The notes beneath the pieces are model-generated. The model ran no database searches and had not been told where the DNA came from. It saw only the letters and a list, made by a program, of their open reading frames with translations. Positions 11,888 to 45,822 of a stretch of 64,000 bases of DNA are shown here, one piece after another (position 1 is the first letter of the stretch; each line of letters opens with the position of its first letter). A program made the translations under genes and the position numbers. Source of the stretch: Candidatus Nealsonbacteria bacterium (GTDB taxonomy: Bacteria > Patescibacteriota > Minisyncoccia > Minisyncoccales > RBG-13-42-11); contig JAPLXL010000005.1 in assembly GCA_026396115.1 (NCBI GenBank), positions 137,316-201,315 on the forward strand, written 5' to 3'.

Positions 11888-11889
11888 TT

Positions 11890-13067: not shown

Positions 13068-13073
13068 AAAAAA

Positions 13074-13107: not shown

Positions 13108-13125
13108 ATATGGTATTATATTTTA

Positions 13126-13842
13126 ATGAGAAAGAATCCTTATCCAGGAAAACTTATTGTTTTGGAAGGATTGGACGGTTCTGGTAAATCTACCCAAACG
13201 AATTTATTAATTTCTCATTTAAAAAAGGAGGGATATAAAACTGCGATAATAGATTTTCCCCAATATGGAACAAAATCGGCTGGTCTTATAGAAGAATATT
13301 TAAATGGAAAATATGGTTCGGCATTGGAGGTGGGACCTTATCGGGCTTCTATCTTTTATGCCTGCGATCGCTACGATGCTTCTTTTAAAATAAGAAAATG
13401 GTTAAAAGAAGGAAGAATAGTTATTTCTGATAGATATGTTGCTTCAAATATTGGCCATCAAGGGGGAAAAATTAAAAATAAAGAAGAAAGAAAAACATTT
13501 TTGAAATGGTTATATAATCTTGAATATAATATTTTTGGCATTCCAAAACCTGATATTACTTTTCTTTTAAAAACTTCTCCCAAATTAGCTCGAGAAATGG
13601 CGCCAAAAATAACAGACAAAAAGAAAAAGAAAAAAAGAATTGCCTATTTAGGAAGTAAAACAAGAGATATCCATGAAAGTGATTTAAATCATTTAACCAA
13701 AGCCCTTAATTCTTATTTAGAAACAGCCAAAGAATTTCCAAAAGAATTTAAAATGATAGAATGCATGAAAAATAACAAATTCATACCTCCGGAAATAATT
13801 CATCAAGAAATTATTAAAATTGTAAACAGTAAATTAAGATAA
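13126..13842 (+). CDS. tmk: thymidylate (dTMP) kinase
   Basis: LIVLEGLDGSGKSTQTNLL P-loop and DRY motif (ISDRY); the start was moved to the internal Met to clear the tdk terminator. Confidence 0.8.
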   Translation: MRKNPYPGKLIVLEGLDGSGKSTQTNLLISHLKKEGYKTAIIDFPQYGTKSAGLIEEYLNGKYGSALEVGPYRASIFYACDRYDASFKIRKWLKEGRIVISDRYVASNIGHQGGKIKNKEERKTFLKWLYNLEYNIFGIPKPDITFLLKTSPKLAREMAPKITDKKKKKKRIAYLGSKTRDIHESDLNHLTKALNSYLETAKEFPKEFKMIECMKNNKFIPPEIIHQEIIKIVNSKLR

Positions 13843-20185: not shown

Positions 20186-20224
20186 GGAGGGAAGACTGAA
20201 TTCAGTTTCCCCTCCTTATTTTTT
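20186..20224. terminator. bidirectional intrinsic terminator between the convergent ORF 19775-20173 and miaB-miaA
   Basis: Long hairpin ggagggaagACTGAATTCAGTttcccctcc flanked by an A-run (5') and a T-run (3'). Confidence 0.5.
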
Positions 20225-22897: not shown

Positions 22898-24526
22898 TTA
22901 ATGTATTTCCTCTTTTTTCTCCTTTAAGAAATATCTCCATTGTTCTAAAAATTCTATAAATATCTCAAAAGGCAAGTCCACCAAAGCGCTGAAAAAAACA
23001 GCTATGGCGTTATATTTTTTCCATTTATTTGACAGCCATTGGCCCAAACCAACAATCGGCAAAAATAAAATATCAAAAATAAAACTGAAAAATCCGGCTT
23101 TCTTTTCTTCAACCGTAAGCTCTTCTCCTCTGTTTCTGATTGCCAGTCCGGCAAAAGCAACTAAGGCCACAGATATAAGATTAATAACCATTGAGGTTGG
23201 TGGGAATTTGGCCCATTCAAAAATTGCCACTATAACTCCTATTGAAACTGAGGCTCCTATAAGATATAAAAGAGCGATAAAAAATTTAACCAAAGAACCT
23301 CTTTTTTTAGGAACTTTTATTTCGTAAATATCGGTTTTTTCTGTTTTATAGATAATTTTCATTGTTTCAAGCAATACTATTTCTAAATTACTTTTTGAGG
23401 GGGGCTTGATTGTTGCTACCAAAAGAAACATTAAAAAAGTTGATTCTAAAATATCTACAACTATGGTCAGGGGCGAAAAAGTCCTGCCAGTCATTTTAGC
23501 TAAGGGAATTTCTAAAACATAAAGAGCAGCAATATTGGTTAGAAAAATAGATAAAGTAGAGTAAACGGCTGCCCTGAAAAGGCGTTGTTTTAACGTAGAC
23601 GATCTTTTATTATAAGCTTTTTTAATTGATTCTTCTAAATCTTCCGGTTTGGAAATTTTCTCATAAATTTTTGCCGGGTTTTCTCCAGAGATTAAGATGT
23701 CTCCCAATAACAAATAAGGAGTATCATATCTTTCGCAGATTTTATAAAACTTGTCTTTTAAATGGTGGTTTAATTCTTTTTCTAAACTTTCCCAGATTGA
23801 AAAAATATTTTGAGCTATTTCGTGAAGTTTTGCGGTTGGGAGATCGGCCCACTGCCCTTCCCTCTTTTTCAAAAGATGATAAGTAATTATTGGTGAATCC
23901 AATTTAAAAAGAGCTCTTTGGACGGCAATATAAATTTGTCTGTTCTTTTCTTCTTCTGTCATTCCTCCAATTGAAATTACTCCTTGTTGTACTCTTATTT
24001 TATCTATCATTGATTCTGTCATGTAATCAATCAGATCTCTTTCTTTGTGAGAAGGAGAAAGAATTTCTTCGATTTCACAAGCAGTAATACTGAGCAGCCA
24101 ATTATAAAGTTGCATCTTCTGTTTTTCAGAACCCTTCGCTATCGCTCGGGAAGATGATGGGTTATTTTCTAAAATGTAAATATATTTGTTTAATATTTTT
24201 TCAACATCGCCAATTTTCGTTTCTTCTATGTTGTCGTTGGGAAAATGACCTCCTCTGATTAATTCCAAAATAAGGGGTTCTGAAATATTTTTTCCTTCTT
24301 TTGCCAAAAGAAATCTCCGTTTTAAAGTTCTGGCAATAGCCCCCCTTTTCATTAAATGTTCTTCTTGCCAATCAACAATTGCTCTTAATTTTTCGTAAAA
24401 TTCGGCAACTCTTGAAGCGACTTCATCAACGTGAATAAAGGACACATTTTCTTTCTTTTCAAGAGATTGGTACCAAGCTTGATATTTTTGAATTAATTTT
24501 TTAGTTGATTGAGAAATTTCCGGCAT
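22898..24526 (-). CDS. hypothetical protein with a soluble N-terminal half and a multi-TM C-terminal half; one mini-element copy inside
   Basis: Hydrophobic helices in the C-terminal ~230 aa; no recognised family. Confidence 0.4.
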   Translation of the reverse strand: MPEISQSTKKLIQKYQAWYQSLEKKENVSFIHVDEVASRVAEFYEKLRAIVDWQEEHLMKRGAIARTLKRRFLLAKEGKNISEPLILELIRGGHFPNDNIEETKIGDVEKILNKYIYILENNPSSSRAIAKGSEKQKMQLYNWLLSITACEIEEILSPSHKERDLIDYMTESMIDKIRVQQGVISIGGMTEEEKNRQIYIAVQRALFKLDSPIITYHLLKKREGQWADLPTAKLHEIAQNIFSIWESLEKELNHHLKDKFYKICERYDTPYLLLGDILISGENPAKIYEKISKPEDLEESIKKAYNKRSSTLKQRLFRAAVYSTLSIFLTNIAALYVLEIPLAKMTGRTFSPLTIVVDILESTFLMFLLVATIKPPSKSNLEIVLLETMKIIYKTEKTDIYEIKVPKKRGSLVKFFIALLYLIGASVSIGVIVAIFEWAKFPPTSMVINLISVALVAFAGLAIRNRGEELTVEEKKAGFFSFIFDILFLPIVGLGQWLSNKWKKYNAIAVFFSALVDLPFEIFIEFLEQWRYFLKEKKEEIH

Positions 24527-31662: not shown

Positions 31663-32076
31663 ATGTTAGTAATCAGATTTTTAAGAACCGGCAAAAAAAA
31701 TCAACCATCATTTAAGCTCGTGGTTGTTGAAAAAACCAGATCGTCAACTTCCGGCCGCTTTGTGGAACAGGTTGGCTTTTATAATCCTTTGACAAAAGAA
31801 AAAGTTTTCAAGGGAGATAGAATTAAATATTGGCTTTCGGTCGGGGCTCAACCTTCAAATACGGTTTATAATTTATTGGTTTCAGAGAAAATTGTCTTGG
31901 GCAAAAAAATTCCAAAACACAAAAAATCAAAAAAGGAAGTCCCCGGAGGAGAACAAGTTCCCCACGAGGCAAACAATTCTCCTACGGGGCAGGCAAAAAA
32001 GGAAAAAGAGAAAACTACCCCGAAAATCCCAATCCAAGAAAAGCCGAAAGAAGAAAAGGTCAAAAATCCAGAATAA
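31663..32076 (+). CDS. rpsP: 30S ribosomal protein S16 with a Lys/Glu-rich C-terminal extension
   Basis: MLVIRFLRTGKKNQPSFKLVVVEKTRSSTSGRFVEQVGFYNP. Confidence 0.85.
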   Translation: MLVIRFLRTGKKNQPSFKLVVVEKTRSSTSGRFVEQVGFYNPLTKEKVFKGDRIKYWLSVGAQPSNTVYNLLVSEKIVLGKKIPKHKKSKKEVPGGEQVPHEANNSPTGQAKKEKEKTTPKIPIQEKPKEEKVKNPE

Positions 32077-32078
32077 AA

Positions 32079-32107
32079 TAATGGCAGCAGACTGCCATTA
32101 TTTTATT
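32079..32107 (+). terminator. intrinsic terminator after rpsP
   Basis: taatggcag-caga-ctgccatta hairpin followed by a T-rich run. Confidence 0.55.
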
Positions 32108-32156
32108 ATCTTTAGTTGAGTTTATCGAACTGTTGACTACTATTTCGATTCATTTC

Positions 32157-32215
32157 TTGTTATAATATTATAACAAACCAAAGGTTTGGCATATCAAAAT
32201 TTATTTTGCTATAAT
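32157..32215 (+). promoter_or_regulatory. 20-bp perfect palindrome TTGTTATAATATTATAACAA plus an extended -10 (TGcTATAAT) just upstream of the surface-protein gene cluster
   Basis: Palindrome at 32157-32176 (perfect match for all 20 bp); TGnTATAAT at 32207-32215; ATG at 32223. Confidence 0.4.
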
Positions 32216-32222
32216 ACATATA

Positions 32223-34805
32223 ATGCAAAAGAAACTCACAAAATTTATTGTTATCTTTTGTTTATTTTTGCTTTTTCTGTTTCTCTCTTTAACTACCCAA
32301 GTCGCAGTGCAGGGTGAAGAAGAGAATTTATTCTCTTCGCCCGCTTTGGCTCAAGAAAGTAAATTAGAGGTTGAATATCCGGAAATCAAAGGAATAAAAC
32401 CGGAAACGGTGACAACCGAACTGCCGGAATATGTAAGATATGTCTTTAATTTTAGCATAATAATTGCGGGTTTAGTTCTTTTTGGAGCTTTAATTTACGG
32501 AGGAGTAAAATATTTAACCTCAACCGGCAACCTGCCTGCTCTGATAGACGCCAGAGAGCAAATTTTGGCAGCTTTTTTGGGAATAATAATTTTACTTTCT
32601 TCTTATATAATTTTAACCACTATTAATCCCCAGTTAATAGTTTTTAATCTTCCCGAACTTGAAAAAGCAGAAATATTATGTAGAAATGATGATGACTGCC
32701 TCGGAGATCTTATATGTATAGAAGAAAAATGTGTTGAAGCACCCTGCGAGAAAGACGAAGATTGTCCGGGTTTTCCGGACTATGTTTGCAAATTACCAGA
32801 GGGAGTCTGCGTTTATGAAGGAAAGACTTTGATTGTTTATGAAATTCCTTTAGGCCGAATAATTGACGAAGGAGTCTGGGAGGAAGATAGGACTAAAGAA
32901 ACGGAAGATTTAATTAAAGATTTTGAAAAATTTCTTAAAGAGGAAATAAAAGTAAATCCAACTTTTAATCAGATTGCTGATTTGAATAAATATTTAAAGA
33001 CCTTGACAGAGGAATGCCAATGCGGTAATTTGGATGCTTTTTGTACCAAACCCTGGGAATGGAGTATGTCGATTGGTTGCAGCGGAGATCCTTGTAAAGA
33101 AAAACTAGAGGGGACAATCGGAGGCATTGTAGTCGGTGAAAAAACCACCAGAGAAAAAATGGAAGATGTTTTGAAAATCAATGAAGAAAAGATGAAAAAA
33201 CTTTTGGAGTTTTTAGAGAAAATCAAAGAAAAGAAAACGGTCTTCGAAAATCAACTGAATAAATTCTCCAAAGGGTTGGAAGATGCAATGGATTGTCTAA
33301 AACAAAGTAGGGAGTTATACACTTTCAAGGAGCATTTAGCTAGGGTTCAATATTATGAAGATCTTGGCTGGAACGTAAAGATCGTACAGGGTATTTTAGA
33401 AGCAAAAGCGGACCCCTTTACTTTTTACTGTTCGGTTGGAGGACCAATAATGGATTATCCCTATTTGTCGGAAATAGAATTTTCTCCGGAAGAATTCGAA
33501 TCTGTCGAAATTCCGGAGAAACTAGAAAAGCCGGAACCAATAAGCTGTCCGATTGGGATTCCAATAAGTGTAATTTTAGAACAAAGTGGCGGATTAGGAG
33601 TGGCACTGATTAACAAAATGGATGGATTAATTTATTGGATAGACGAGATGAATAAAGAAATCAGAAATATGGCTGATTTCGTTTCTCAATGCAACGAGCA
33701 AAATTGCAAAATTAATTGCGCCTGTATCCCGAATCCTTGCTTTGGTAGTCTATTACCCTGGTGTTTGTTTTTTTCTCCTGCATCTCGCTGTCTTCAGGCA
33801 ATTGGTCAATGCAGCGGTGATCCCTGTCCTTACCCGGAAATTGGAGAAACCTCAGAAAAAATTAAAAAAAATGAAGATGAGATTTTTTTACTTTTAGAAG
33901 AAATAAAAGAAATCTTCCCCAAAGTCAATGAAATTGTGAAAGTAGGCACGGAAGATGCTCTAGACCTGAAAGACATAACCTGGGCAGTTGAATTCTGTTC
34001 CGGTCCTGTGACTGAAACAGAACCACCGACCTGGTTTATGTCAGATTGTTCAATGGCTCTGGGAAGTTATGGGCCGGGCGGTCAAGTAATCGGCGATTGT
34101 CATCCCTGGGATTTCTTTTGTTGTACTCAGTCAAAAGAAGCTTTGAGGGAGGTACCTTCTTTGCCTCCGACGCTTCGAAAACTGGGACCTCGTGTTGGCC
34201 CGGAAGGTCCGGAAGAACCCACGCCTTCAGAATTAGCTAAAAGTTCAATTCCGGCAATGTCTTCGCCGCCTCTCAAGACAGGCGAAGTTAGCTGTCTAAA
34301 ACAGAGCGATCCTCGTTGGGGAAACAAATTATTTGGTCCTTGCCCGCCAGGCGGTACTTATACTGACGCAGGTTGCGGACCTTCTTCTTTAGCAATGGCA
34401 ATTAGTTATTTTCAAAACAAAGAAATTCTTGTTGATACAATCGGGGAAAAAATTGTTGAAAAAGGTTTAAGAAATTGCGACAGCGGCTCAAGCCCTAGCA
34501 TAATGACAGTTATTCCGTCACTATATGGATTATCTTCATATGAAATTAAACCGTTTGCCTTTGAAAACTGGAAAGAAGAAGTAAAGAAATGCTTTGATGA
34601 AGGAGGGTTAATTACTGCTCTAATGGCTGGCCCCAGTAAGTTTACTGCAGGCAGCGGACATTTTATAGCGCTAACTGACATAACCGATGATTATGCTTAT
34701 ATTACGGTAAATGATTCATCCAAAAGAATCTGCCCCAGACAGGAGTTATTAAAAGATGTTTTTAAGTTCAAAAAACAACCGGGTATTTGGTGTATAAAAA
34801 AATGA
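32223..34805 (+). CDS. large secreted/membrane-anchored Cys-rich protein: signal peptide, VirB2/TrbC-like two-helix pilin-like domain, Cys-rich modules, C-terminal C39-like cysteine peptidase domain
   Basis: N-terminal signal peptide; TTELPEYVRYVFNFSIIIAGLVLFGALIYGGVKYLTSTGNLPALIDAREQILAAFLGIIILLSSYIILTTINPQL has two TM helices; the C-terminus carries ...DAGCGPSSLAMAISYF... and ...GSGHFIALTDITDD... (C39-type Cys/His motifs). A mini-element copy is inserted near the N-terminus. Confidence 0.5.
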   Translation: MQKKLTKFIVIFCLFLLFLFLSLTTQVAVQGEEENLFSSPALAQESKLEVEYPEIKGIKPETVTTELPEYVRYVFNFSIIIAGLVLFGALIYGGVKYLTSTGNLPALIDAREQILAAFLGIIILLSSYIILTTINPQLIVFNLPELEKAEILCRNDDDCLGDLICIEEKCVEAPCEKDEDCPGFPDYVCKLPEGVCVYEGKTLIVYEIPLGRIIDEGVWEEDRTKETEDLIKDFEKFLKEEIKVNPTFNQIADLNKYLKTLTEECQCGNLDAFCTKPWEWSMSIGCSGDPCKEKLEGTIGGIVVGEKTTREKMEDVLKINEEKMKKLLEFLEKIKEKKTVFENQLNKFSKGLEDAMDCLKQSRELYTFKEHLARVQYYEDLGWNVKIVQGILEAKADPFTFYCSVGGPIMDYPYLSEIEFSPEEFESVEIPEKLEKPEPISCPIGIPISVILEQSGGLGVALINKMDGLIYWIDEMNKEIRNMADFVSQCNEQNCKINCACIPNPCFGSLLPWCLFFSPASRCLQAIGQCSGDPCPYPEIGETSEKIKKNEDEIFLLLEEIKEIFPKVNEIVKVGTEDALDLKDITWAVEFCSGPVTETEPPTWFMSDCSMALGSYGPGGQVIGDCHPWDFFCCTQSKEALREVPSLPPTLRKLGPRVGPEGPEEPTPSELAKSSIPAMSSPPLKTGEVSCLKQSDPRWGNKLFGPCPPGGTYTDAGCGPSSLAMAISYFQNKEILVDTIGEKIVEKGLRNCDSGSSPSIMTVIPSLYGLSSYEIKPFAFENWKEEVKKCFDEGGLITALMAGPSKFTAGSGHFIALTDITDDYAYITVNDSSKRICPRQELLKDVFKFKKQPGIWCIKK
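32302..32350. repeat. mini-element copy at the N-terminus of the 860-aa surface protein
   Basis: gggtgaagaagagaatttattctcttcgcccgctttggc. Confidence 0.6.
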
Positions 34806-37687
34806 AAAAATATTTTTTGAAAAAAAAGATTATAATTCTCTTTTCAATAATAATAACGGTAGTTTTAATCGCCGGCCTTTTCATTGTTTTTGATTTTAAT
34901 TTAGAAAATTTAACAGTTAAAAAAGGCATCCAAATGACTAAAAATAAAGCCCGAATTTTTGCCCAAGAAATCTCTCTTTCTTTTATGCCTCGTTTTCCTC
35001 AAAGATTGATGTATTTAGCCGGAGAAATGACAATCCTTACCCAGAACCTGGTTAATTTTAACGAAAAATTGAATGAACTTACAGAAGAATGTGGTTGTCA
35101 ATATGCCGAATCGCAATGTCAACAGAGTAAAATCTTGGGAGTCCAAGTAGGATGCAAACCCGGAAAGATTAAAACTTTTAGCGACCCTTGCCCCCATAGA
35201 GAAGAGATTGAAGACAGGCAATTAGATATCCAGATGAAAATAGAACAATTTTCTTATTTACAAAAATTACTCAAAAAAGAAATGGAGGTAGGATTGGAAA
35301 AAGAATTAAAAACTTTAAGGCCGGAAGTGGCTGAAGAATTAAAAGATAATTTAAATAAACTTCTTGAGTTAAATCAAGACGCTATTCTTTCGGCCTCATC
35401 TACCTACCCTTTACCTCTTCAATGTACGGCTGACAAATGCCAAGCCCAATGTCAACAGGGATCCAGTTTCAGCCTGAAGGCTTGTCTCAATCCCGGTGAG
35501 CAAAAACCAATGGAAGCGATATTTGAAGCCGGAGTGGGTTTGAATGATTTAGAACTCGGCGAAATAGGAATTAAAAATATCAATTTAGGATTACCGGAAG
35601 AAATTGAATTAAAAGACCTGGCTGAACTTTCTTCATTCACTATTTCTTTGCCAAGCGTTAATATCACTTTTCCTGAAATTACAATTGCTGAGTTTCAAGC
35701 AGGAGCATCTCTCGATCTTTCCGGCCGACCTATTATCTTCAATCCACCTTCACCAACAATTCCTCAGCCACCCTTATTGGAGTTATCCTGTCCAAAATTG
35801 CCGCCCTATGAACCATCCACTTTTTCCCAAACTTCCTTAGCCCAAACAATTGGTGATTTTCCGTTTAGGACGTTAGGCTGTGGCTGTTCTCCTAGTTGGT
35901 CAATTACTGTGGAAGAAGAGTCCGTAGATTATGTTGACGTTGAGTGGTATTTTCAAACTTTTTCCTGGTTATCGGAAAAATGTCAGGAGTTGCCGGGAAT
36001 GGAAGACCAGGGAATTCCAACTGAGAAAATTGAAAAATGTTTTGACCAGGAAAATGTCCATTTGACTATTATTCAAGAATGCGATGATTTTTGGGCAAAT
36101 TATAACCCTGAATCTCCGCCGCCTATTCCGCCAATTTGCAATGCTCTGGGACCGTCTTCTTCGGCAACTCAAATACAACAAGAATGTCAAAATTTATTTG
36201 AACAAGAAGGAGAATCCGCTCCTTCAAATTGCAACCTAAGCGTTTTAAAAGAAAAATGCGAGCAATTAAAAGATGAAGGAATAGAAGAAACTCCTGAGCC
36301 TTGTAAGTTTTTACCCCTCTTTACCGGTCAATTTCCTTCTCCGGACTCTTATGAATTTTCCGGTTCGCCCCAGTTTTCCCCAACCCAAACAATTGCCGAT
36401 TTTCCGCTTAGTATGTTGGGCTGTCCTGCATCTCCTCCCACTCTTCCCAAAATTATTTTTCCTAAAATAGTCATTCCTGATATTAAACTACCACATATTA
36501 AGTTTTGGCCCTTTTTTGATATTAAACTGCCTAATTTTATTTTTGAAGATTTGATTCTGCCTGATTTAGACCTCTGCGATTTAGATAACTGCGCCAATAT
36601 CTTTCCTGATTTAAAATTTCAATTGCCGTATCTTGATATACCGCAAATTATTGTTCCTTCCATTCAACTGCCGGACATCAGCGCTAATATTTCGGGCGTA
36701 GGAGTGATTAAAGTTCCTTTGCCGAGAGTTGAACTTAGCGAAATTGAATATCCGGTTATTTCTTTAAATTTTCTTCAATCATTTAATTTAGGCAATCTTA
36801 TTACTCCGGAATTAGAACTGCCAAGAATTGAATTGCCCCGGCCAAAAGTTCATTTTGCCTTCAAAAGTCTTAATATTGATTTCTTCAATATTCTTTTAGG
36901 ATTGATTGGTCAATTTCTTCCTATTCCATCGGGATGTATCGGCTTTGATTTCCATATAATTCCTCTCTCGATTATTTTTCCTGATTTTTATTTTACCTGG
37001 CCTGCTTTTCCGAGAATTCCAGAAATCCCTTTTTGCGAGAACATAAATGACTTTTGTCAAAAGGCGAAAACCAATTTGAAAGAAGTAACCGATAAAGTCA
37101 AAGAAATAGAAAACCTAGCCAATACAACTTTCCAAAATGAAATTCAGTCAAAACTTAATCTGGCGGCTCAAGAAATAAATCAAACATTAGCCAATGCTAT
37201 TGGAGAACAACTAAATCAGCGCAGCCAAACAATAATAGACGAGATAGAAAAACATATTCAGCTTAACGCAAAAATAGAAGCCGGGGTTTTGAAAATCCCA
37301 CCGCTTTCGATTGAAATGCCAGATATAGAAGTTCCGACTATTTCCTTGTCTGAGATAACCGGTTTGCCGGATAAAATCACTATTCCCTGGCCAGAGAGCT
37401 TGAAAAAAATTATTCTTGAAAAAGAAATAACCTATAAACTCCCGACTATATCTTTAGATAAGCTCAGTTATGAGAAAGAGATTTCAATTAAAATCCCCGG
37501 TTTTCAGATGCCTTCGCTAACAGTTACTTTAGGCTCGCTTCTTAATTATCCTTCTTGTGAAAGCCAGCCGCCTTCTGGCAGCAATCCTTGTCCTACCGGT
37601 CAAATTCAGCAGAAGCTTGAGGAGATTAAACAAGTTAAAGGTGAAATAGAAGAAACTTCCAAAAAGATAATTAATATATTAGAATGA
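34802..37687 (+). CDS. giant N-terminally anchored Cys-rich protein sharing a TEEC-x-C...GC-x-G...DPC module with the preceding protein; degenerate LP-rich repeats in the distal half
   Basis: One N-terminal TM helix; NEKLNELTEECGCQYAESQCQ...GCKPG...DPCP parallels LTEECQCGNLDAFC...GCSGDPC of the upstream gene; the start overlaps the upstream stop (ATGA). Confidence 0.45.
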   Translation: MKKYFLKKKIIILFSIIITVVLIAGLFIVFDFNLENLTVKKGIQMTKNKARIFAQEISLSFMPRFPQRLMYLAGEMTILTQNLVNFNEKLNELTEECGCQYAESQCQQSKILGVQVGCKPGKIKTFSDPCPHREEIEDRQLDIQMKIEQFSYLQKLLKKEMEVGLEKELKTLRPEVAEELKDNLNKLLELNQDAILSASSTYPLPLQCTADKCQAQCQQGSSFSLKACLNPGEQKPMEAIFEAGVGLNDLELGEIGIKNINLGLPEEIELKDLAELSSFTISLPSVNITFPEITIAEFQAGASLDLSGRPIIFNPPSPTIPQPPLLELSCPKLPPYEPSTFSQTSLAQTIGDFPFRTLGCGCSPSWSITVEEESVDYVDVEWYFQTFSWLSEKCQELPGMEDQGIPTEKIEKCFDQENVHLTIIQECDDFWANYNPESPPPIPPICNALGPSSSATQIQQECQNLFEQEGESAPSNCNLSVLKEKCEQLKDEGIEETPEPCKFLPLFTGQFPSPDSYEFSGSPQFSPTQTIADFPLSMLGCPASPPTLPKIIFPKIVIPDIKLPHIKFWPFFDIKLPNFIFEDLILPDLDLCDLDNCANIFPDLKFQLPYLDIPQIIVPSIQLPDISANISGVGVIKVPLPRVELSEIEYPVISLNFLQSFNLGNLITPELELPRIELPRPKVHFAFKSLNIDFFNILLGLIGQFLPIPSGCIGFDFHIIPLSIIFPDFYFTWPAFPRIPEIPFCENINDFCQKAKTNLKEVTDKVKEIENLANTTFQNEIQSKLNLAAQEINQTLANAIGEQLNQRSQTIIDEIEKHIQLNAKIEAGVLKIPPLSIEMPDIEVPTISLSEITGLPDKITIPWPESLKKIILEKEITYKLPTISLDKLSYEKEISIKIPGFQMPSLTVTLGSLLNYPSCESQPPSGSNPCPTGQIQQKLEEIKQVKGEIEETSKKIINILE

Positions 37688-37702
37688 AATAATAAAAAAC
37701 TT

Positions 37703-39049
37703 ATGCAGAGAAAGACAACTTTGAATAAATATTTTTTTCTCATCCTAATTTTATTTTTATTTTTTTTGTTAAGTGATTTTGCTTTGGCTAAGAAATGTAC
37801 AACCGATGCTGAGTGCGCGCCGGCAAGATGTGTAGATGAAAAATGTGTTAAGACCTTAGAGATTGTTTATCCTAAGGTTCCCGGAGCTACTGCCACTCCA
37901 GAAACCGTTGCCACCGGCTTGCCAGAATACGTCAATTATATTTTCCGATTTGCGGTTATTGTCATTGGCTTAATAATTTTTGGTGTTTTGGTTTACAACG
38001 GCGTTATTTATTTGACCTCAGTCGGGGATCCATCCAAAATGACTGATGCCAGAACCGGAATTTTTGCCGGTTTTTTAGGGGCAATTATTTTGCTTTCAGC
38101 TTATCTCATCTTTAATACTATTAATCCTCAATTAACTATTTTAAAAATGGAAGAAGTCCCTGCTCTCAAACCCATCGTCTTCCCAGGCATTTATATTTGC
38201 GCCAATAAGGTAGATGATATAGAAGGAGTTCTCAATAAATACCTTCAAGGTGATCGAGTTGAAGCTGTCGAAGAGCTCCGAAAAATAATAGAGGATAAAA
38301 TCTGCCTAAAAGCTAATTTCTCCGGCAATTTCGAGAATTTTGAAGTGAGTGCGAATAACAATACTTTTTTTGTCATTCCAGCTGAAGAGTCAAAATATGA
38401 TTCCGATAAAGCAACAACCACAACTAAATATGTGTCTAAATATGGATTAATTTTACACGAAAAAGATAATTTTAGCGGCAGATGTTTTCTCGCATTCCAA
38501 GAAAATGATAAAATATATGCATCATCATCTAAAGAAGAATTTAAGCCAATTTCCGGAAATTTTGATAAGTTACCCTCAGATTTCAAAGCCAGATCATTTA
38601 CTCTTTTTAAAGAACCTGACCCTGAACCGGCTCCTGCTGCCCAAGGAGTAATCTTATATAATTGTCTTAGTTATGACCAAACGGGGTGCGCAAAAGATGT
38701 TACGCTTAAAGAAGCTCCTTTCAATACAGGAGGCGCTGATATGAGACAGGTTACGAAAAGTGGACTGGGAGAATTAGCCCAAAATACCCGTTCAGTTAAA
38801 ATTGATCCCAAAGGTTCTTTCTTGGCTCTCCTTTATGAGAAGGACGATTTTGAAGGTAAATGTGAAGTAATTTCTAGCAATGTTGTTGACCTTACCCAAC
38901 ATCCTATTGGTCGTTGTCCGACTGACCTTGCGGGAGCTGGCTGCAATGTTATAGGAATTTGGATTTATAGTCTAGGAGGTCTGCTATCCAACCCTTATTG
39001 TCAGCCCTGTATTCAATCAATGACTGTAATTAAGGGACTAAGACTCTAA
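37703..39049 (+). CDS. secreted protein with a second copy of the VirB2/TrbC-like two-helix domain and a Cys-knot-like N-terminus
   Basis: Signal peptide; CTTDAECAPARCVDEKC; TVATGLPEYVNYIFRFAVIVIGLIIFGVLVYNGVIYLTSVGDPSKMTDARTGIFAGFLGAIILLSAYLIFNTINPQL is paralogous to the domain in the 32223 gene. Confidence 0.45.
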   Translation: MQRKTTLNKYFFLILILFLFFLLSDFALAKKCTTDAECAPARCVDEKCVKTLEIVYPKVPGATATPETVATGLPEYVNYIFRFAVIVIGLIIFGVLVYNGVIYLTSVGDPSKMTDARTGIFAGFLGAIILLSAYLIFNTINPQLTILKMEEVPALKPIVFPGIYICANKVDDIEGVLNKYLQGDRVEAVEELRKIIEDKICLKANFSGNFENFEVSANNNTFFVIPAEESKYDSDKATTTTKYVSKYGLILHEKDNFSGRCFLAFQENDKIYASSSKEEFKPISGNFDKLPSDFKARSFTLFKEPDPEPAPAAQGVILYNCLSYDQTGCAKDVTLKEAPFNTGGADMRQVTKSGLGELAQNTRSVKIDPKGSFLALLYEKDDFEGKCEVISSNVVDLTQHPIGRCPTDLAGAGCNVIGIWIYSLGGLLSNPYCQPCIQSMTVIKGLRL

Positions 39050-39054
39050 TTAAG

Positions 39055-40548
39055 ATGAAAAAAAATTATTTTTATCTCCTAATTTTAACTCTTCTTTTTC
39101 TTCTTTTTCCTTTGCCAACTTTTGCCCAATGGACATTCATCCGGGATGCTCTTTTGTTTCTTCCCACCTTGGCAATTGCTGCTATTTTGGCTTTTGTTAT
39201 TTTTCTTAGCGGAGGAATTACTTGGTTAGTGGGTGCAATTCTTAATTGGGTAATCAGCCCCGGGTTTGTCAGTTTAAGTTATACCAGAATTGATGGCCCA
39301 AATCCCAATCCAATAATTGGAATGGGATTAAACATTACCCAAAGTTTTGTTAATTTGGCTCTGGTGGTTATTTTGGTTGTTATTGCTCTTTCCATTGCCC
39401 TGCGATTGGGTGAATACGGCAGTAAAAAAATCTTTGCCAAGCTGCTTATTATTGCCTTATTGGTTAACTTTGCTCCGGTTCTTGTTGGCTTAATAGTTGA
39501 TGCTTCAAATATTGTCATGAACTATTTTTTAAATGCAATTACAGAAGGAGCAATGGATATTGGTTCTCAGGTTTCAGATTTTAGCGCTGGCATTGCGAAA
39601 GTTATTGGGGGGGCTGGCGGCAACATTATGAGCAGATTGGGATTAGTGATGCAGGGGATTACCCAGATTATAGTCAACCTGTCCATGGCTTTTGCTTTTT
39701 TACTTTTTGCCGCTCTTTTCTTGATGAGATATGTAGTCATCTGGACTTTAACTATTTTATCTCCCCTGGCTTTTGTTGCTTGGATTTTACCCGGCACTAA
39801 AAAGCTTTGGAATATGTGGTGGAATCAGCTTATTCAATGGTCAATTATTGGTATTCCCATTGCCTTTTTTCTCTATTTAGGTCTCAATAGTTTTTCCTAT
39901 CTTAGGTCTGCTTTCGTTAGCAATCTTGAAATGCCGGGCATGGAACCGGCAACTGTTGGTTTTTTAAACGAAATTTTCCCTTTTTTCGTTATCATTGTCT
40001 TCCTTATTTTAGGCTTTGCCATCGGTCTTCAAACCGGAGCAATGGGAACTAAGGCAGTGATTAAAGGATTTCAAGCCGCTAATAAAACAGCTCAAAAAAC
40101 AACATTAAAAGCCATCGGACGCGGAACAGCGGCAGTCGGAATGGCAGCCGGAGGAGCGGCAGCCGTAAGTGCTGTTGGAAAGATGCAGAGAACATATACA
40201 GCTGGAAGAGCAAAAGGCCTTTCACCGATAAAAGCGACGGGTGAAGCGGTAAAAAGACAGTGGCAAAGAAGAACGTGGCCGGCAATAAAACAGACGGGGC
40301 AAGTGATAAAAACAACATTAACAACAAAAGCAGGAGCAAAAGCAGGAGCAAAAGCAGGATGGTCTAAGGGGGTGGCTGCCGGAAAAGGAACTTGGTCTGC
40401 TGTTAAGGATATTGCCAAACAAACAGCAATCGCAGGAGCAGTCGCAGGGGGAATAATGAAGAAAAAATCACCAACTCATTGTCCATCTTGTGGAGGCGCT
40501 GCTCCGGCCGGAGCAAGTTTCTGCCCTCATTGCGGAGCTAATTTTTAA
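39055..40548 (+). CDS. polytopic membrane protein (VirB6/TrbL-like topology) with a Lys/Ala-rich tandem-repeat tail and a C-terminal CxxC...CxxC zinc ribbon
   Basis: Signal-like N-terminus plus at least six hydrophobic helices; tail KAGAKAGAKAG is encoded by a 3x9-bp tandem repeat at 40327-40358; ends HCPSCGG...FCPHCGANF. Confidence 0.4.
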   Translation: MKKNYFYLLILTLLFLLFPLPTFAQWTFIRDALLFLPTLAIAAILAFVIFLSGGITWLVGAILNWVISPGFVSLSYTRIDGPNPNPIIGMGLNITQSFVNLALVVILVVIALSIALRLGEYGSKKIFAKLLIIALLVNFAPVLVGLIVDASNIVMNYFLNAITEGAMDIGSQVSDFSAGIAKVIGGAGGNIMSRLGLVMQGITQIIVNLSMAFAFLLFAALFLMRYVVIWTLTILSPLAFVAWILPGTKKLWNMWWNQLIQWSIIGIPIAFFLYLGLNSFSYLRSAFVSNLEMPGMEPATVGFLNEIFPFFVIIVFLILGFAIGLQTGAMGTKAVIKGFQAANKTAQKTTLKAIGRGTAAVGMAAGGAAAVSAVGKMQRTYTAGRAKGLSPIKATGEAVKRQWQRRTWPAIKQTGQVIKTTLTTKAGAKAGAKAGWSKGVAAGKGTWSAVKDIAKQTAIAGAVAGGIMKKKSPTHCPSCGGAAPAGASFCPHCGANF

Positions 40549-40566
40549 AACTTCGTAAAATTATTT

Positions 40567-41043
40567 ATGTCAGAAGAATTTGAAATTCAAAAACTAAAAA
40601 GCGAATACCCGGAATTTTTTGAGCAGGTTTCTCCTGAATTTTTGGAGTTTATTTTTTCTGAAGAAACCTCTTCTAAAATTGCCGAGATTTGTTTGGAAAA
40701 CGGAATAGAAGACGAAGAAAAAATTGAAAAAATTGCTTACCGGGTTACCTTGGCTCTGTTAGAGCAAGTACCAAAAGAAAACTTAACTGAAGTCCTTGAA
40801 AAAGGAGTTGAAATAGATTTTGAAACCGCCGAAAAAATCTCTATTGAGATTAAACAGCTTATCTTTTCACAAATTCCAGAAACTCAACCAAAAGAAATTC
40901 AAAAAGAAGAGGATCAAATAGAAGAAGATGAGATAGAAGAAGATGAACTAACTCAACCGGAAAAACCGTCTCCTCCGGTGACGGAAAAAGAAGAACCTGA
41001 AAAGCCCTCAAAAAAAGATGTTTACCGAGAGCCTGTTGGATAA
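40567..41043 (+). CDS. acidic (Glu/Asp-rich) hypothetical protein
   Basis: ORF only; C-terminal EEDQIEEDEIEEDELTQPEKPSPP. Confidence 0.3.
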   Translation: MSEEFEIQKLKSEYPEFFEQVSPEFLEFIFSEETSSKIAEICLENGIEDEEKIEKIAYRVTLALLEQVPKENLTEVLEKGVEIDFETAEKISIEIKQLIFSQIPETQPKEIQKEEDQIEEDEIEEDELTQPEKPSPPVTEKEEPEKPSKKDVYREPVG

Positions 41044-41088
41044 ATAAAAAGGGAATGACTACTGTCATTCCCTCTAAAAAGCAAACAA

Positions 41089-42258
41089 CTACTTCTTTTT
41101 CTTTTTATGCCTCTTTCTCTGTTTTTTTAGTGTTTCTAGGGCTTCTCGAGCACTTTTCATTACTCTTTCTGTCTCTGGGCTTAATGGTTTTTCTGCATTT
41201 ACTTCTTCTTCTTTTGGTTCTTGTTCTGATTCACCACCCGGTATCCTCTTCCAAGCTCCGATTAGATTAAGAAAAGCTCCTTCCATTCCAGTTGCCCCAG
41301 GCGTTTCAATCCTAAGGTAAGATCTTTGTTCCATTGAAAGTTTTGTCATTGTATTGTCTACAATGGGTTGATGTTTTTGGTAGAAAACTTGGGGATCCGC
41401 CCTGAACTCTGCCTGGACCTCTTCCTCTTTTCTTCCTTCGGCTCTCGTCACCGCTAAAATCACAGTTCCCATTATTTCCTCAGCTCTACCAGCTGCCCTC
41501 ATCTCCTGTTCTTTTTTAGCAGCTCCTGCTTTCTGATATTCCGGTGATAATCCAATGCTTTTAATGTCTATTCCTTGTTTCGCAATTTGCAGCCCCCATT
41601 TAGGAAGAGTTTCTTGAATTAATTTTTCGTCTTTTAACCCAACGATTCCTTCCCCTCCTTCCCAGAGAGTTTCACTTTTACCTTTCAAAGCGATAAATTC
41701 ATCTACTGTCAACATGCTAACTCTCGCCCTCATAAGAGCGTCTATTCTGGCAAGGACATCTTCCAGAGGAGTCGGAGGAGCAATAAAGAGAAACAGAAAA
41801 GGATTCAATATCCGCATCGTTATCAATATCTCAATATCCAGCGGAATTCGTTCTGGAGGTAGGGTCTCTACCTTAAAAATTTTTGTCCAGTAAACCGCTG
41901 GTTTCAACATTACATGTCTAAGCTCTTCATCGTGAAACTGTGGTTTCTCAATTTTCTCTCCTACTTCCTCTACCCGGCGTAGATCGGTCCATCTTAAAGG
42001 ATATTTATAGATTTTATAAAAGGGCCATAAATAAACATACAAGCCACCAAAAATTTGACCATAAAGCTTACTTTCTTTTTTTTTCTTCTTCTCTTTTTTC
42101 CTCCAAATATTCCATTCAACATCCATCCAATGATTTTCCCATTGGAAGATAATTTTATAGAAAGCGCCCGCCTTCATCAGCGCCTGGGCTGTCCCTTCTT
42201 TTACAATAGTGAACCTGACAAACAAAAAAAATACTCCTAATAATATTAACCATTCCAT
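41089..42258 (-). CDS. SPFH/band-7-like membrane protein with a poly-Lys segment and basic C-terminus
   Basis: N-terminal TM then IVKEG...; later VETLPPERIPLDIEILITMRILNP and WGLQIAKQGIDIKSIGLSPEYQKAGAAKKEQE resemble SPFH core motifs. The family assignment is tentative. Confidence 0.35.
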   Translation of the reverse strand: MEWLILLGVFFLFVRFTIVKEGTAQALMKAGAFYKIIFQWENHWMDVEWNIWRKKEKKKKKESKLYGQIFGGLYVYLWPFYKIYKYPLRWTDLRRVEEVGEKIEKPQFHDEELRHVMLKPAVYWTKIFKVETLPPERIPLDIEILITMRILNPFLFLFIAPPTPLEDVLARIDALMRARVSMLTVDEFIALKGKSETLWEGGEGIVGLKDEKLIQETLPKWGLQIAKQGIDIKSIGLSPEYQKAGAAKKEQEMRAAGRAEEIMGTVILAVTRAEGRKEEEVQAEFRADPQVFYQKHQPIVDNTMTKLSMEQRSYLRIETPGATGMEGAFLNLIGAWKRIPGGESEQEPKEEEVNAEKPLSPETERVMKSAREALETLKKQRKRHKKKKK

Positions 42259-42438
42259 TTTCCTTTCACCTCCAATATAGTTTTTAAAGGGCTTTCCTCA
42301 AAGAAAACCCTCCTTTTCCTTGATAATTTACTTATATCACAATATAATATTTTTGTCAAATTTCTTGACATTGTGTTTTTCTTTGATTCTATTTGTGCTA
42401 AAATTAAAAAAGTAGTAAAATAATAAGTAGATAAAATT

Positions 42439-42747
42439 ATGCCCGTTGAAGCTGTTATCCCTAAGAAAAAAGGCGGTTGGTTTCAGAAAATTCCTACCGA
42501 AATTTTTTTATCGCCCGGCGGAATGATTTTGATTTTTTTTGCCCTTATAATTGAAATTATTGATTGGATTCCGCTTCCTTTTGTTGACCAAATATGGGAA
42601 CTACCATTGGAAATAGGTTTCATTGTTTTATTAGTTATAATAGTTAAAGATATCTCCTGGAAATCTTTAGTTATTCCTTTTATTATTGAACGCATTCCCA
42701 TAATAAGCGATATTGTTCCCACTTGGCTTATAAAAATGTTTGCCTGA
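42439..42747 (+). CDS. small two-TM membrane protein
   Basis: ORF with two hydrophobic helices. Confidence 0.3.
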   Translation: MPVEAVIPKKKGGWFQKIPTEIFLSPGGMILIFFALIIEIIDWIPLPFVDQIWELPLEIGFIVLLVIIVKDISWKSLVIPFIIERIPIISDIVPTWLIKMFA

Positions 42748-42768
42748 AGGATCGGACTTGACAAATTT

Positions 42769-42935
42769 TAAAAATAAATTACAATTTGACATAGTAGCAA
42801 TTAAGATGTGCCGCGTCTCCGAAAATCTGAAAAGGGAGATAGGCTGATCCGCCTCAGCTTTGAAGCTTCGGCGGGCAAGAAGGTCGGCGCTACTAGCAAA
42901 GATTAATTATCAGTAATTGTCTAAATCCAGAAAGA
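42769..42935 (+). promoter_or_regulatory. candidate promoter (TTGACA-16-TACAAT) and GC-rich structured leader upstream of khpA-trmD
   Basis: TTGACA at 42769-42774, TACAAT at 42791-42796; the leader contains the hairpin ccgcctcagctttgaagcttcggcgg, which is conspicuous in an AT-rich genome. Confidence 0.3.
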
Positions 42936-42938
42936 ACT

Positions 42939-43250
42939 ATGACTGAAACAAAAGGAAACGATAAAGAATTCCTTGAGTATTTAGTGAAGGCTTTAGTTGA
43001 TAACCCAGAAGATGTCAAAATCGACCGCAAGGTTGATGAAATGGGAGTTTTGCTTTCTTTGAAAGTGAACTCCGAAGATATGGGTCAGATTATCGGCAAA
43101 GCCGGTTCTACTGCCAGAGCAATTAGAGGTTTGGTTCGAATTGTCGGTCTTAAAAATCACGCCAGAGTGAATTTGAAGATCGAAGAACCGGAAGGTGGCA
43201 GAGAAACTCGAGAAATAAAAACAGAATCTATTGAAGATTTAAAGTTGTAA
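42939..43250 (+). CDS. khpA: KH-domain RNA-binding protein KhpA (UPF0109), copy 1, with a C-terminal extension
   Basis: LVKALVDNPEDVKIDRKVDEMGVLLSLKVNSEDMGQIIGKAGSTARAIRGLVRIVG; classic position between rpsP and trmD. Confidence 0.7.
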   Translation: MTETKGNDKEFLEYLVKALVDNPEDVKIDRKVDEMGVLLSLKVNSEDMGQIIGKAGSTARAIRGLVRIVGLKNHARVNLKIEEPEGGRETREIKTESIEDLKL

Positions 43251-43305
43251 ACTAAAAGTTTACAATTGCTCGAAGACCGTGCTATTATTGATAGTGCGGT
43301 TTTCG

Positions 43306-43379
43306 TTTACCGAGCTTTCACGGATGAAAGCGAAGGTGAAAATGAAGGCAAACTTCGCAGAAGGAAAACTTCATCGCCT
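43306..43379. repeat. mini-element copy immediately upstream of the trmD start codon
   Basis: tttaccgagctttcacggatgaaagcgaaggtgaaaatgaaggcaaacttcgcagaaggaaaacttcatcgcct. Confidence 0.6.
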
Positions 43380-44039
43380 ATGATAACATTTGACATTATT
43401 ACCATTTTTCCCAAGATTTTTGATTCTTATTTGAGAGAATCCTTTATAAAAAAAGCAATAGTCAAAGGCTTGCTTAAAATTAACATTCATAATTTAAGAG
43501 ATTGGGCAAAAGACCGCCACAAAACCGTTGATGATAGGCCATTTGGCGGCGGGTTGGGAATGGTCTTAAAGATTGAACCAATATATAAAGCCATAAAGGC
43601 TTTGAAAAAATCCAAAATTATTTTATTTACGCCGAGGGGAAAGAAATTTAATCAAAAAATGGCTTATCAGTTTTCCAAATTAAAGCAGATAATTATTATT
43701 TGCGGCCGTTATGAAGGAGTTGATGAAAGAGTGGCAAAAAAAATAGCCGATGTTGAGCTATCAATAGGCGATTATGATTTAATGGGCGGAGAGTTGCCGG
43801 CTATGGTGGTTATGGAGACAATAGCCAGATTAATCTCCGGAGTTCTTGGAAAGCCCGAATTATTAAAAGAAAGAATTACCAAAGAAAAGGGCTTTATTGA
43901 GTATCCTCAATATACCAGACCGGAGGTTTTTTCGCCCAAAAAAGGAGTAAAATGGCACGTGCCGAAAGTTTTGGTTTCCGGAAATCATAAAAAAATTGAA
44001 GAATGGCGGGAAAAACACCAAAAAATCATTGGGGAATAA
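43380..44039 (+). CDS. trmD: tRNA (guanine37-N1)-methyltransferase TrmD
   Basis: MITFDIITIFPKIFDSY start and SPOUT knot motifs. The longer frame starting at 43266 is open only because a mini-element copy lies immediately upstream. Confidence 0.85.
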   Translation: MITFDIITIFPKIFDSYLRESFIKKAIVKGLLKINIHNLRDWAKDRHKTVDDRPFGGGLGMVLKIEPIYKAIKALKKSKIILFTPRGKKFNQKMAYQFSKLKQIIIICGRYEGVDERVAKKIADVELSIGDYDLMGGELPAMVVMETIARLISGVLGKPELLKERITKEKGFIEYPQYTRPEVFSPKKGVKWHVPKVLVSGNHKKIEEWREKHQKIIGE

Positions 44040-44616: not shown

Positions 44617-45822
44617 ATGAAAAGGAAGATTGATATGCGATTTGGTGGAGGATACAATACAATTTTGTATTCTGCCAGGAGAAACTGTTTCTTTGCCTAT
44701 GAGCAGGAAGCAGTGGAAATTCATTCTAAATACGGGGGGAGGCAGTATTACTCCTCTCGAACTGGGTTGAGTGGTGCCGGTTTTCTCGAAGTTGATCCGA
44801 TCAACAATGATTTGATCCAGTTCGGGTATTACCGGACAGATGCGATGAGCGAACAGCGAATAGAGACAGTTCATACTGTCAATGGTTGTCCAGTATTTGG
44901 TTATGCCCCGATTATCTCGCATGGGGGAATTGACCAAAACGCACCGTTTGTACTCGCGGACGGTAGGAAAGTGGCGTTTGTCCATGCCTGCGATGTTCGT
45001 GATACCATTCTTAAATGGGAAGGGATTAAGGGCAAGGAAATCGAGTTGAACTATTATGATCACTACGGTCATAAAGAGAAACTCACTTTCCAGTTTTACA
45101 ATCCTGACCATTTCAGAGAAGTGAGGGCAAGCCGTTTCGTAGACTTACGAGGTCCTCGCCTAGAGGCAAAGGCAGTCCAACTCGAAGAGTTGGAAAGCGT
45201 CTTTGCTCGTCAGCTTTCCATTTCAAAAGAGATGGAAAGCGAGCGCTGGTTTCACATCAATGCCGATGGAATATTCGACATGATGTGGGAAGAGGACCCT
45301 CGTCAAATCGTCGGCGAAATCGTACCAGGATGGTACGGCGAAGGCAATGGTCTCTACTGGCGACGTGGTCGCAACGGCGTGAAAGTTTTCATGGAGATTA
45401 AAAGGTCTTCCTTGAATGGCGGGAAATATGTCGTTAATGGCAAAACTTCCGAGTTTATCGACTACGAGCAGAACTTTTCCATCTTGGAATGGTTCAGCAA
45501 GGACATTGATGCGTGGAAGAAACACTTCGTCGCGCAAGTGACGAAGAAAACACGCATGGACTACGTATATGCCTGCCAGTGTGTGGGCATAAATACTTAT
45601 GAGTTGATGAAACAACATCCGGATGTCCGAGTCTGTCTCCAAGATTCACTTGATGTTGGCAACTGTCGCCCGGCATCAGAGGAATTCGTCGAGCAATATA
45701 AAATCAAGCTCGATGAGGACGGATACACTGCCATAAAGACATTGCTAGAAAATCCGAACATCGACGAGATGTTGCGGAATTTCAACTTTCAGAAGACAAT
45801 CCACTACAAACTAGTGGATTAA
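44617..45822 (+). CDS. orphan hypothetical protein, compositionally foreign (clearly GC-richer than its surroundings), preceded by a GC hairpin and an AAGGAGG RBS
   Basis: 401-aa ORF with no motif I recognise; GC and codon usage differ from flanking housekeeping genes. Confidence 0.45.
   Translation: MKRKIDMRFGGGYNTILYSARRNCFFAYEQEAVEIHSKYGGRQYYSSRTGLSGAGFLEVDPINNDLIQFGYYRTDAMSEQRIETVHTVNGCPVFGYAPIISHGGIDQNAPFVLADGRKVAFVHACDVRDTILKWEGIKGKEIELNYYDHYGHKEKLTFQFYNPDHFREVRASRFVDLRGPRLEAKAVQLEELESVFARQLSISKEMESERWFHINADGIFDMMWEEDPRQIVGEIVPGWYGEGNGLYWRRGRNGVKVFMEIKRSSLNGGKYVVNGKTSEFIDYEQNFSILEWFSKDIDAWKKHFVAQVTKKTRMDYVYACQCVGINTYELMKQHPDVRVCLQDSLDVGNCRPASEEFVEQYKIKLDEDGYTAIKTLLENPNIDEMLRNFNFQKTIHYKLVD

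Follow-up and report, generated by a model that had tools for sequence, protein, structure and literature searches.

Type IV secretion system (T4SS) loci of Patescibacteria carry essential arrays of VirB2-like pilins (PMC10633639, PMC12102498, PMC12857230). An essential six-pilin array has been described in Candidatus Southlakia epibionticum ML1 (PMC10633639, PMC12857230), and a total of 441 pilin arrays have been reported (PMC12102498). The VirB2-like pilins of Patescibacteria have been identified with the Pfam families PF18895 and PF04956 (PMC12102498), the PF18895 family itself going by that name (PMC12102498, PMC12857230), and in cultured Paceibacterales, proteins of PF18895 rank among the function-unassigned genes of highest expression (PMC10936435). 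In this study, we analyzed a 64-kb stretch of DNA from Candidatus Nealsonbacteria (hereafter the window, all positions being counted from its first letter), focusing on five genes that we label A to E (open reading frames, ORFs, between 32223 and 41043). The Pfam family, the Patescibacteria T4SS and the pilin arrays are already known, and NCBI labels protein C 'pilin'. Our analyses showed that A and C each carry a copy of this VirB2-like hairpin at the head of a large protein, and suggested that the hairpin proteins A and C, together with B, D and E, constitute the envelope-facing part of a T4SS machine, a reading to which we assign a probability of about 0.7.

The five plus-strand genes are packed in the order A-B-C-D-E in one operon (32223-41043), with an intergenic spacing of 5-18 bp and with the start of B overlapping the stop of A. 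Their main features are as follows.

32223..34805, plus strand: gene A, 860 amino acids (aa), NCBI MCX6759523.1 'C39 family peptidase'.
32364..32660, plus strand: hairpin of A (residues 48-146), VirB2-like PF18895, composed of LE-x-YP, helix 1, the YLTS-G..DAR loop, helix 2 and INPQL.
32820..34172, plus strand: middle region of A (residues ~200-650), conserved in the family and Cys-rich, with long helices at 309-360, 448-488 and 537-572.
34284..34802, plus strand: peptidase domain of A (residues 688-860), papain-like, Pfam Peptidase_C39_2 (E 1.2e-7).
34374-34376 and 34659-34661, plus strand: putative catalytic residues Cys718 and His813 of A, both intact.
34802..37687, plus strand: gene B, encoding 961 aa when begun at the ATG at 34802; our ORF list starts B at the TTG at 34787.
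37703..39049, plus strand: gene C, 448 aa, NCBI MCX6759525.1 'pilin'.
37856..38158, plus strand: hairpin of C (residues 52-152), VirB2-like PF18895, paralogue of the A hairpin.
38186..39046, plus strand: ectodomain of C (residues 162-448), two beta-gamma-crystallin-type Greek-key domains.
39055..40548, plus strand: gene D, 497 aa, named 'zinc ribbon domain-containing protein' by NCBI.
40567..41043, plus strand: gene E, 158 aa, a small acidic soluble protein, NCBI 'hypothetical protein'.

The initial annotation had described a duplicated two-transmembrane domain, and both peptide stretches it quoted are present in the translations of ORFs 32223-34805 and 37703-39049. The two domains are paralogs, with 54 of 101 residues identical (53%) between A 48-146 and C 52-152 (E 4e-31, BLASTP). 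Non-hydrophobic motifs, namely LE-x-YP, LPEYV-Y-F-F, YLTS-G, DAR and INPQL, are common to A and C too, so the similarity is more than transmembrane composition. Hydropathy analysis bore out the described layout of a signal peptide plus two hydrophobic helices, each protein having a signal-like N-terminus and two hydrophobic segments, and AlphaFold2 placed long helices at residues 69-99 and 104-134 of A and at residues 75-105 and 110-139 of C (for C, with a predicted local distance difference test score, pLDDT, above 90). Positions L48, E49, Y52, P53, G94, G120, N135, P136 and L138 of the A hairpin were invariant in the A family alignment; the most conserved positions of the hairpin were LE-x-YP and INPQL, at the domain ends, and the loop motif was strongly conserved as well. 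The YLTS-G..DAR loop has a net charge of +0.7 and both of its flanks are net negative, which predicts, by the positive-inside rule, an N-out/C-out topology as in VirB2-type pilins. After INPQL comes a linker of ~19 residues with low model confidence. Searching the six-frame translation of the 64 kb with the domain profile returned exactly two hairpin copies (E ~1e-45 each) and no third copy in the window, the next match having an E of 0.1. Among 40 A-type and 45 C-type orthologues, hairpin identity amounted to 57% within a type and 47% between types, and for all 85 hairpins the nearest neighbour was of the same type. A-type and C-type hairpins form separate orthologous groups, and the duplication is ancient.

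The hairpin domain is that of Pfam PF18895 (T4SS_pilin), the 'VirB2-like pilin' family of Patescibacteria T4SS. Against a gathering threshold of 26.6 bits, C scored 28.1 bits at full length and 32.1 bits with the domain alone. All of 28 diverse family hairpins matched PF18895 (down to 5e-12), as did 23/25 A-type orthologues and 66/74 pilin-domain array ORFs from 35 genomes. Additionally, 27 of the 28 hairpins matched NCBIfam NF045849, the Mbov_0395 pilin-like conjugal transfer protein of Mycoplasma integrative and conjugative elements; the matches spanned nearly the whole model, with a best E of 6.7e-9 and 22.7 bits for the C domain, every score seen being lower than the curated cutoff of 40 bits. 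Judged by sequence, the hairpin is related to the NF045849 family and is not a member of it, and these matches provide an independent tie of the domain to monoderm T4SS. PF04956 (TrbC) was matched by 1/25 and 1/74 relatives in the two sets (E ~7e-4). The family is large, comprising 9,342 clusters at 50% identity (E <=1e-3), of which the best 150 were listed. The hairpin had no tblastn match in 72,556 plasmids.

Gene neighbourhoods in relatives were compared in 37 Patescibacteria genome loci and in six long contigs (L001, L003 and L041-L044). The loci were retrieved by a contig scan with the family alignment; a scan with the A sequence alone returned nothing. In five of the six long contigs the gene set adjoins PrgI/VirB3, a TraC-like gene and VirB4. 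The order in L001 and L043 is A-B-C-D-E-(Band_7)-PrgI/VirB3-TraC-like-VirB4, and L042 is arranged likewise without Band_7. L003 is a variant in which other genes replace B and extra genes lie between D and PrgI, the locus ending inside the TraC-like gene, and L044 is rearranged, with D and VirB4 preceding the A-like and pilin genes. L041 is like the window: housekeeping genes come after A-B-C-D-Band_7, and the cluster is split from VirB3/VirB4. L001, L004-L007 and L041-L043 all preserve the order A-B-C-D. Among the 37 genome loci, 35 carried long pilin-domain genes, mostly in arrays of 2-4, and D and E homologues were nearby in most. E homologues are conserved neighbours of D and, in relatives, also of PrgI/VirB3; E itself showed no known domain in Pfam. 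L044 also carries its T4SS/pilin genes (2673-13539) within ~2 kb of rnpA-yidC-dnaA (dnaA 15812-17161), in keeping with a published remark that in Patescibacteria the replication origin often has T4SS loci close by.

Another explanation is that the hairpin was reused as a plain two-pass anchor and export signal of surface proteins and that A and C never meet a T4SS; the separation from VirB3 and VirB4 in the window and in L041 speaks for it, as does the lack of T4SS-related annotation on most of the fused ectodomains. We consider this unlikely. The A-B-C-D order is maintained, most of the 37 loci have a D homologue close to their long pilin-domain genes, and the end and loop motifs show a strong conservation that a plain anchor would not need. 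Moreover, the pilin genes and other T4SS genes of S. epibionticum are essential for epibiotic growth (PMC10633639).

The initial annotation had further claimed that the domain is not a free pilin and that its fusion to very large extracellular regions would be an unusual use of the fold. The hairpin does precede large extracytoplasmic regions, with an enzyme in A and a crystallin-like part in C, but this architecture turned out to be the usual form in the clade. Only 7 of 86 pilin-domain ORFs in the 37 genome loci were short. Single-domain relatives (n=234 retrieved, a sample biased towards A and C kin) had a median of ~320 residues past the hairpin, and in most sampled relatives the hairpin makes up the first ~100 residues of proteins of 320-1480 aa with hydrolase, crystallin or unassigned ectodomains. 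A (860 aa), C (448 aa) and their orthologues (410-900 aa) all fall outside the size of small mature pilins (~50-150 aa). Besides, 12 proteins contained 2-4 tandem hairpins (P0056-P0063, P0077, P0143, P0149, P0162, P0185 and P0194 are listed as examples), each hairpin keeping its own LE-x-YP and INPQL ends; P0060 (618 aa) and P0061 (612 aa) have four each.

The RP4 pilin TrbC undergoes C-terminal trimming. By analogy, A and C might be precursors that are cut after INPQL, which would yield a pilin of ordinary size along with an enzyme or crystallin protein secreted in free form; in its favour, conservation peaks at INPQL and LE-x-YP, the two ends of the domain, and the linker after INPQL was modelled with low confidence. 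We regard this as rather improbable, considering that INPQL is kept where hairpins adjoin inside the tandem-hairpin proteins, and also in a pilin of 133 aa, apparently a free one, whose sequence stops ~10 residues further on; a helix cap with a structural role suits this pattern better than a site of cleavage. No dedicated maturation peptidase was seen in the operon either.

Protein A, which contains 38 Cys residues, consists of a signal peptide, the T4SS_pilin hairpin, two small Cys knots, a Cys-rich helical middle and a C39-like papain-fold peptidase. The best structural match of A in Foldseek was the pseudomurein endoisopeptidase PeiR (8z4n, E 1.7e-5), followed by a C39-like peptidase (3erv, E 6.6e-4), and the motifs GCGP[ST]S (around Cys718) and GH[FY]I (around His813) are kept in most C39_2-type orthologues. 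Across the A family, the hairpin and the Cys-rich middle are constant and the C-terminal module changes, being C39_2 in 10 members, NlpC/P60 in 3, M23 in 2, C70 in 2, M74 in 1 and SLT_3 in 1, and a further group carries a LAS-type SAHYGG...HxDHIH motif at the C-terminal position. The interchange of unrelated wall-hydrolase modules at one position suggests that the job of A is cutting cell wall, and the sequence evidence points to a predicted peptidoglycan hydrolase as its C-terminal domain. In a published survey, VirB1 homologues linked to virB4 occurred chiefly in Paceibacteria; that count may already include some A-type proteins as VirB1 homologues, with the pilin hairpin unremarked.

The middle region of A yielded no known fold, either by Foldseek against the PDB or by comparison of the A-family profile with PDB sequences. 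A 'helix, LTEEC-C, GC, DPC' module occurs twice in it (residues 251-296, 32973-33110, and residues 469-540, 33627-33842), and the same module is found, weakly, in the N-terminal region of B (residues 74-140 in the numbering of the ORF list, 35006-35206), with BLASTP E values of 0.001 and 0.13 between A and B. The two 4-Cys knots after the A hairpin (residues 153-196, 32679-32810) follow the pattern C-x5-C-x4/5-C-x4-C, and a 4-Cys knot stands before the hairpin in C (residues 32-48, 37796-37846). The knots of A and C match Pfam Nodulin_late weakly and align weakly with each other (E 0.2).

Protein C, with 14 Cys residues, comprises a signal peptide, the 4-Cys knot (32-48), the T4SS_pilin hairpin, a linker and two beta-gamma-crystallin domains. 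The pLDDT of the AlphaFold2 model was mostly above 90 over residues 161-400 and lower near the C-terminus. In Foldseek, the ectodomain matched Protein S (1nps, E 3.6e-4) and 1m8u (E 7.2e-4), and then flavollin (3hzb), 3so0, clostrillin and gamma-crystallins with E values of 1.2e-3 to ~1e-2, all with a probability of 1.0. The crystallin signature Y/F-x4-Y/F-x-G is represented by LHEKDNFSG and LYEKDDFEG, and the match to Pfam Crystall was marginal (E 0.036). The NCBI model of C has 421 aa, 27 residues fewer than the 448-aa ORF; throughout the family alignment a signal peptide is conserved that this shorter model lacks, which makes 37703 (ATG) the more probable start.

Protein B, which sits between the two pilin-domain genes, has one N-terminal transmembrane helix and a large Cys-rich and Pro-rich ectodomain. 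It matched neither Pfam nor PDB sequences, and its orthologues are conserved between pilin-domain genes in L001, L004-L007 and L011. In L008 and L025, a pilin hairpin and a B-like segment are directly joined in one protein. Protein D, a polytopic membrane protein, is a divergent VirB6/TrbL homologue: 5 of 20 members of its family match PF04610 TrbL (best 8.4e-6), and TrbL_3 is found on orthologues. It carries a long low-complexity tail rich in Ala, Gly and Lys and then a CxxC...CxxC zinc ribbon (residues 473-497, 40471-40545). In the D family, the zinc ribbon was found in one other of the 20 scanned members and in the L043 orthologue outside that set. In the D neighbourhood of L003, a small ORF with faint zinc-ribbon matches lies directly downstream on the opposite strand.

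These features would be accommodated by the following mechanism. A would supply a hairpin with a peptidoglycan-type endopeptidase, B a single-pass Cys-rich ectoprotein, C a hairpin with two beta-gamma-crystallin domains, D a VirB6/TrbL-like platform and E a small acidic protein. First, A and C would be exported by their signal peptides, presumably through Sec. Second, they would be inserted N-out/C-out with the positive YLTS-G..DAR loop in the cytoplasm, an orientation suggested by the topology features observed. Third, the hairpin might be recruited by the VirB6-type platform D, which would hold A and C at the T4SS or in a stalk or short pilus. In VirB2-type pili, both subunit termini point outward, and assembly has been modelled on a VirB6 pentamer (bioRxiv 10.64898/2025.12.18.695078). 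Fourth, the termini of A and C would likewise face outward, placing the C-terminal domains on the outer face. Fifth, A would cut wall peptide links, a job of the VirB1/PrgK type, in its own wall or in that of the host, and C would act as a stable binding or spacer module; these two roles are suggested by the domain identities and by the swapping of hydrolase modules among orthologues.

Several points weigh against this T4SS reading. C39-like domains also process bacteriocin leader peptides, so that the wall is a putative substrate of A. None of VirB3, VirB4 and the coupling protein was found in the 64-kb window. To our knowledge, all characterised VirB2-like pilins are small, and by our own estimate a tight helical lattice would become crowded if each of its subunits bore an ectodomain of 300-700 aa. 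A itself scored 16.7 bits against PF18895 (E 0.0078), below the threshold. The 28-hairpin profile compared with all PDB sequences found no pilin, the best hits being junk (E >=0.07), and when both full models were compared with the PDB in Foldseek, only the crystallin and peptidase domains gave matches, with no pilin and nothing for the hairpins. Finally, hhalign of the 28-hairpin profile against a 28-sequence profile of Agrobacterium-type VirB2, whose query sequence was verified against PDB 8cue, gave a probability of 0.7%; this negative is uninformative, because in the control the VirB2 profile likewise recovered no other solved conjugative pilin and the test is without power.

The relation to VirB2/TrbC claimed in the initial annotation is upheld as far as the PF18895 family and the gene context go, while direct profile similarity was not obtained in a comparison that its control showed to be without power. 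Because sequence cannot settle the point, it is the topology, the assignment to the family and the gene context that underlie the label 'VirB2-like'. A further alternative is that the pilin similarity is due to transmembrane composition only and that the domain belongs to an unrelated two-transmembrane family; in its favour are the same hhalign result and the weak scattered matches to Htr2, T6SS_Burk_ExIF, tetraspanin, CrcB and similar, which, like those to Nodulin_late, we judged to be compositional (transmembrane or Cys-pattern). That explanation appears highly improbable: such stray matches are few and weak against those of 28/28 hairpins to PF18895 and 27/28 to NF045849, and the T4SS gene neighbourhood is conserved.

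The size and crowding of the ectodomains bear also on a stronger form of the T4SS reading, which does not contradict it. According to this, the hairpins of A and C are pulled out of the membrane and polymerise, alone or with a short major pilin encoded elsewhere, into a VirB2-type tube whose outer surface bears the hydrolase and crystallin domains and so brings enzymes to the host wall. We view such a pilus as possible, though doubtful. The N-out/C-out topology and the flexible ~19-residue linker after INPQL would suit it, as would the position of the termini of VirB2-like subunits outside the tube (bioRxiv 10.64898/2025.12.18.695078); polypeptides with 2-4 tandem hairpins suggest side-by-side packing, the genes adjoin the VirB6-like D, and short free pilin-domain ORFs occur within 10 kb in some loci. 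Conversely, six-frame translation searched with the domain profile disclosed no free short pilin in the 64-kb window, the crowding estimated above would apply to every subunit, and we know of no characterised precedent for the arrangement.

As regards its meaning, the sole member of Patescibacteria that is open to genetics cannot live as an epibiont without its T4SS, which has two cell walls to cross. Most 'pilins' in the sampled loci of the Paceibacteria type are N-terminal hairpins of large surface proteins, and counts of pilin arrays in the literature, based on PF18895 matches, mix very different proteins. The A family, with its interchangeable hydrolase modules, is a concrete candidate for the missing hydrolase, and it is a testable idea that enzymes and binding modules reach the secretion machine by means of the pilin hairpin, which would act as their tag for docking or assembly. 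If the hairpins did polymerise, epibionts would build a T4SS pilus or stalk to which hydrolases and modules of crystallin-like or adhesin type are covalently attached, so that the pilus would carry enzymes and cut a path to the host membrane, and the proteins with 2-4 tandem hairpins would be pre-linked pieces of its lattice.

The surroundings of the operon are housekeeping genes, with dnaE, rnhB, rpmF, nusB, rnc and rpsP (identified as Ribosomal_S16 by Pfam) upstream and khpA and trmD downstream, and the G+C content is 34-41%. Further features at and near the operon boundaries are listed below.

32072..32107, strand not assigned: terminator-like hairpin with a 16-bp palindrome, 3' of rpsP, the upstream boundary of the operon (pattern scan only).
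32186..32215, plus strand: predicted promoter-like site TTGGCA-18 nt-TG-TATAAT with 11/12 consensus matches, directly 5' of gene A.
41048..41075, strand not assigned: terminator-like hairpin between the convergent E and Band_7 genes, the downstream boundary of the operon (pattern scan only).
41089..42258, minus strand: SPFH/Band_7 membrane protein, 389 aa (Pfam E 7e-6), convergent neighbour of the cluster.
42439..42747, plus strand: membrane ORF of 102 aa, whose homologues adjoin pilin-domain arrays in L008, L017, L025 and L031.

The Band_7 protein has a Lys-rich C-terminal tail, and many Patescibacteria loci have conserved its gene in convergent orientation beside the pilin/VirB6 cluster; the gene holds the equivalent position in L001, L003, L005, L041, L043 and L044, and its product may be a membrane-microdomain scaffold for the T4SS. 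The ORF at 42439-42747 was considered as PrgI/VirB3 and rejected, having no BLAST similarity to PrgI and no Pfam match. The 10.7-kb cluster (A-E, Band_7 and the 102-aa ORF) lies between rpsP (S16) and khpA-trmD (window 31663-44039), which form one contiguous operon in many bacteria. In relatives, the cluster comes after rsmA (RrnaAD) and a LysM-M23 or LysM-CHAP gene and runs on into VirB3 and VirB4; it follows from this different setting that the cluster was moved or split in the present lineage.

A T2SSE ATPase (59747-60979) and a T2SSF platform (60972-62051) of the type IV pilus/type II secretion system kind lie 19 kb downstream of the cluster and belong to a pilus system separate from the T4SS-type hairpins. 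A type IV pilin (PilA-type, of type II secretion systems and type IV pili) was also rejected as an identity for the hairpin proteins, which lack the G/FxxxE prepilin-peptidase motif and have two helices and a Sec-type signal peptide instead. Elsewhere in the window, the ORFs at 22898-24526 (minus strand, 542 aa) and 44617-45822 (plus strand, 401 aa) had no Pfam match, and an ORF of 684 aa at 20202-22256 (minus strand) joins a MiaB-like part (UPF0004 plus radical SAM) to MiaA (IPP transferase), a fusion of two consecutive tRNA-A37 modification enzymes.

Compared with the known systems, A and C share with VirB2/TrbC/TraA of Gram-negative T4SS and PrgF of pCF10 a signal peptide, a pair of long hydrophobic helices whose short, charged loop is cytoplasmic and whose termini are outside (in the orientation predicted here) and a gene beside virB6. 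They differ in that profile similarity to those pilins is not detectable, although these pilins also fail to detect each other, in that the mature proteins are 4-8x larger, and in that polymerisation is known only for the pilins. With the VirB2-like pilin arrays of Patescibacteria, A and C have in common PF18895, the phylum and an adjoining VirB6 gene, joined in relatives by VirB3 and VirB4, and the 53% identity between A and C is at the top of the range reported for array paralogues (maximum 54%). The published arrays are treated as small pilins, with length and fused domains unmentioned, whereas A and C are large fused proteins; in the literature searched, we found no mention of pilin-hairpin fusion to large ectodomains. 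C shares the paired Greek-key fold and the signature with microbial beta-gamma-crystallins (Myxococcus Protein S, clostrillin and flavollin) and differs from them in being joined to a T4SS pilin hairpin; by eye, their N/D-N/D-x-x-S/T-S calcium motif is not evident in C. Lastly, A is comparable with the VirB1-like hydrolases of Gram-positive T4SS (PrgK of pCF10, TraG of pIP501 and TcpG), which are likewise encoded in the T4SS locus. Both combine an N-terminal membrane anchor with modular extracytoplasmic hydrolase domains, putative in A, and in both the hydrolase modules differ between systems. A alone has, between anchor and enzyme, a conserved Cys-rich region of 450 aa with an unmatched fold; its catalytic module is C39-like with a papain fold, that of PrgK/TraG/TcpG being of the SLT + CHAP type, and its anchor is a pilin-type hairpin, in contrast to the single transmembrane helix of those hydrolases.

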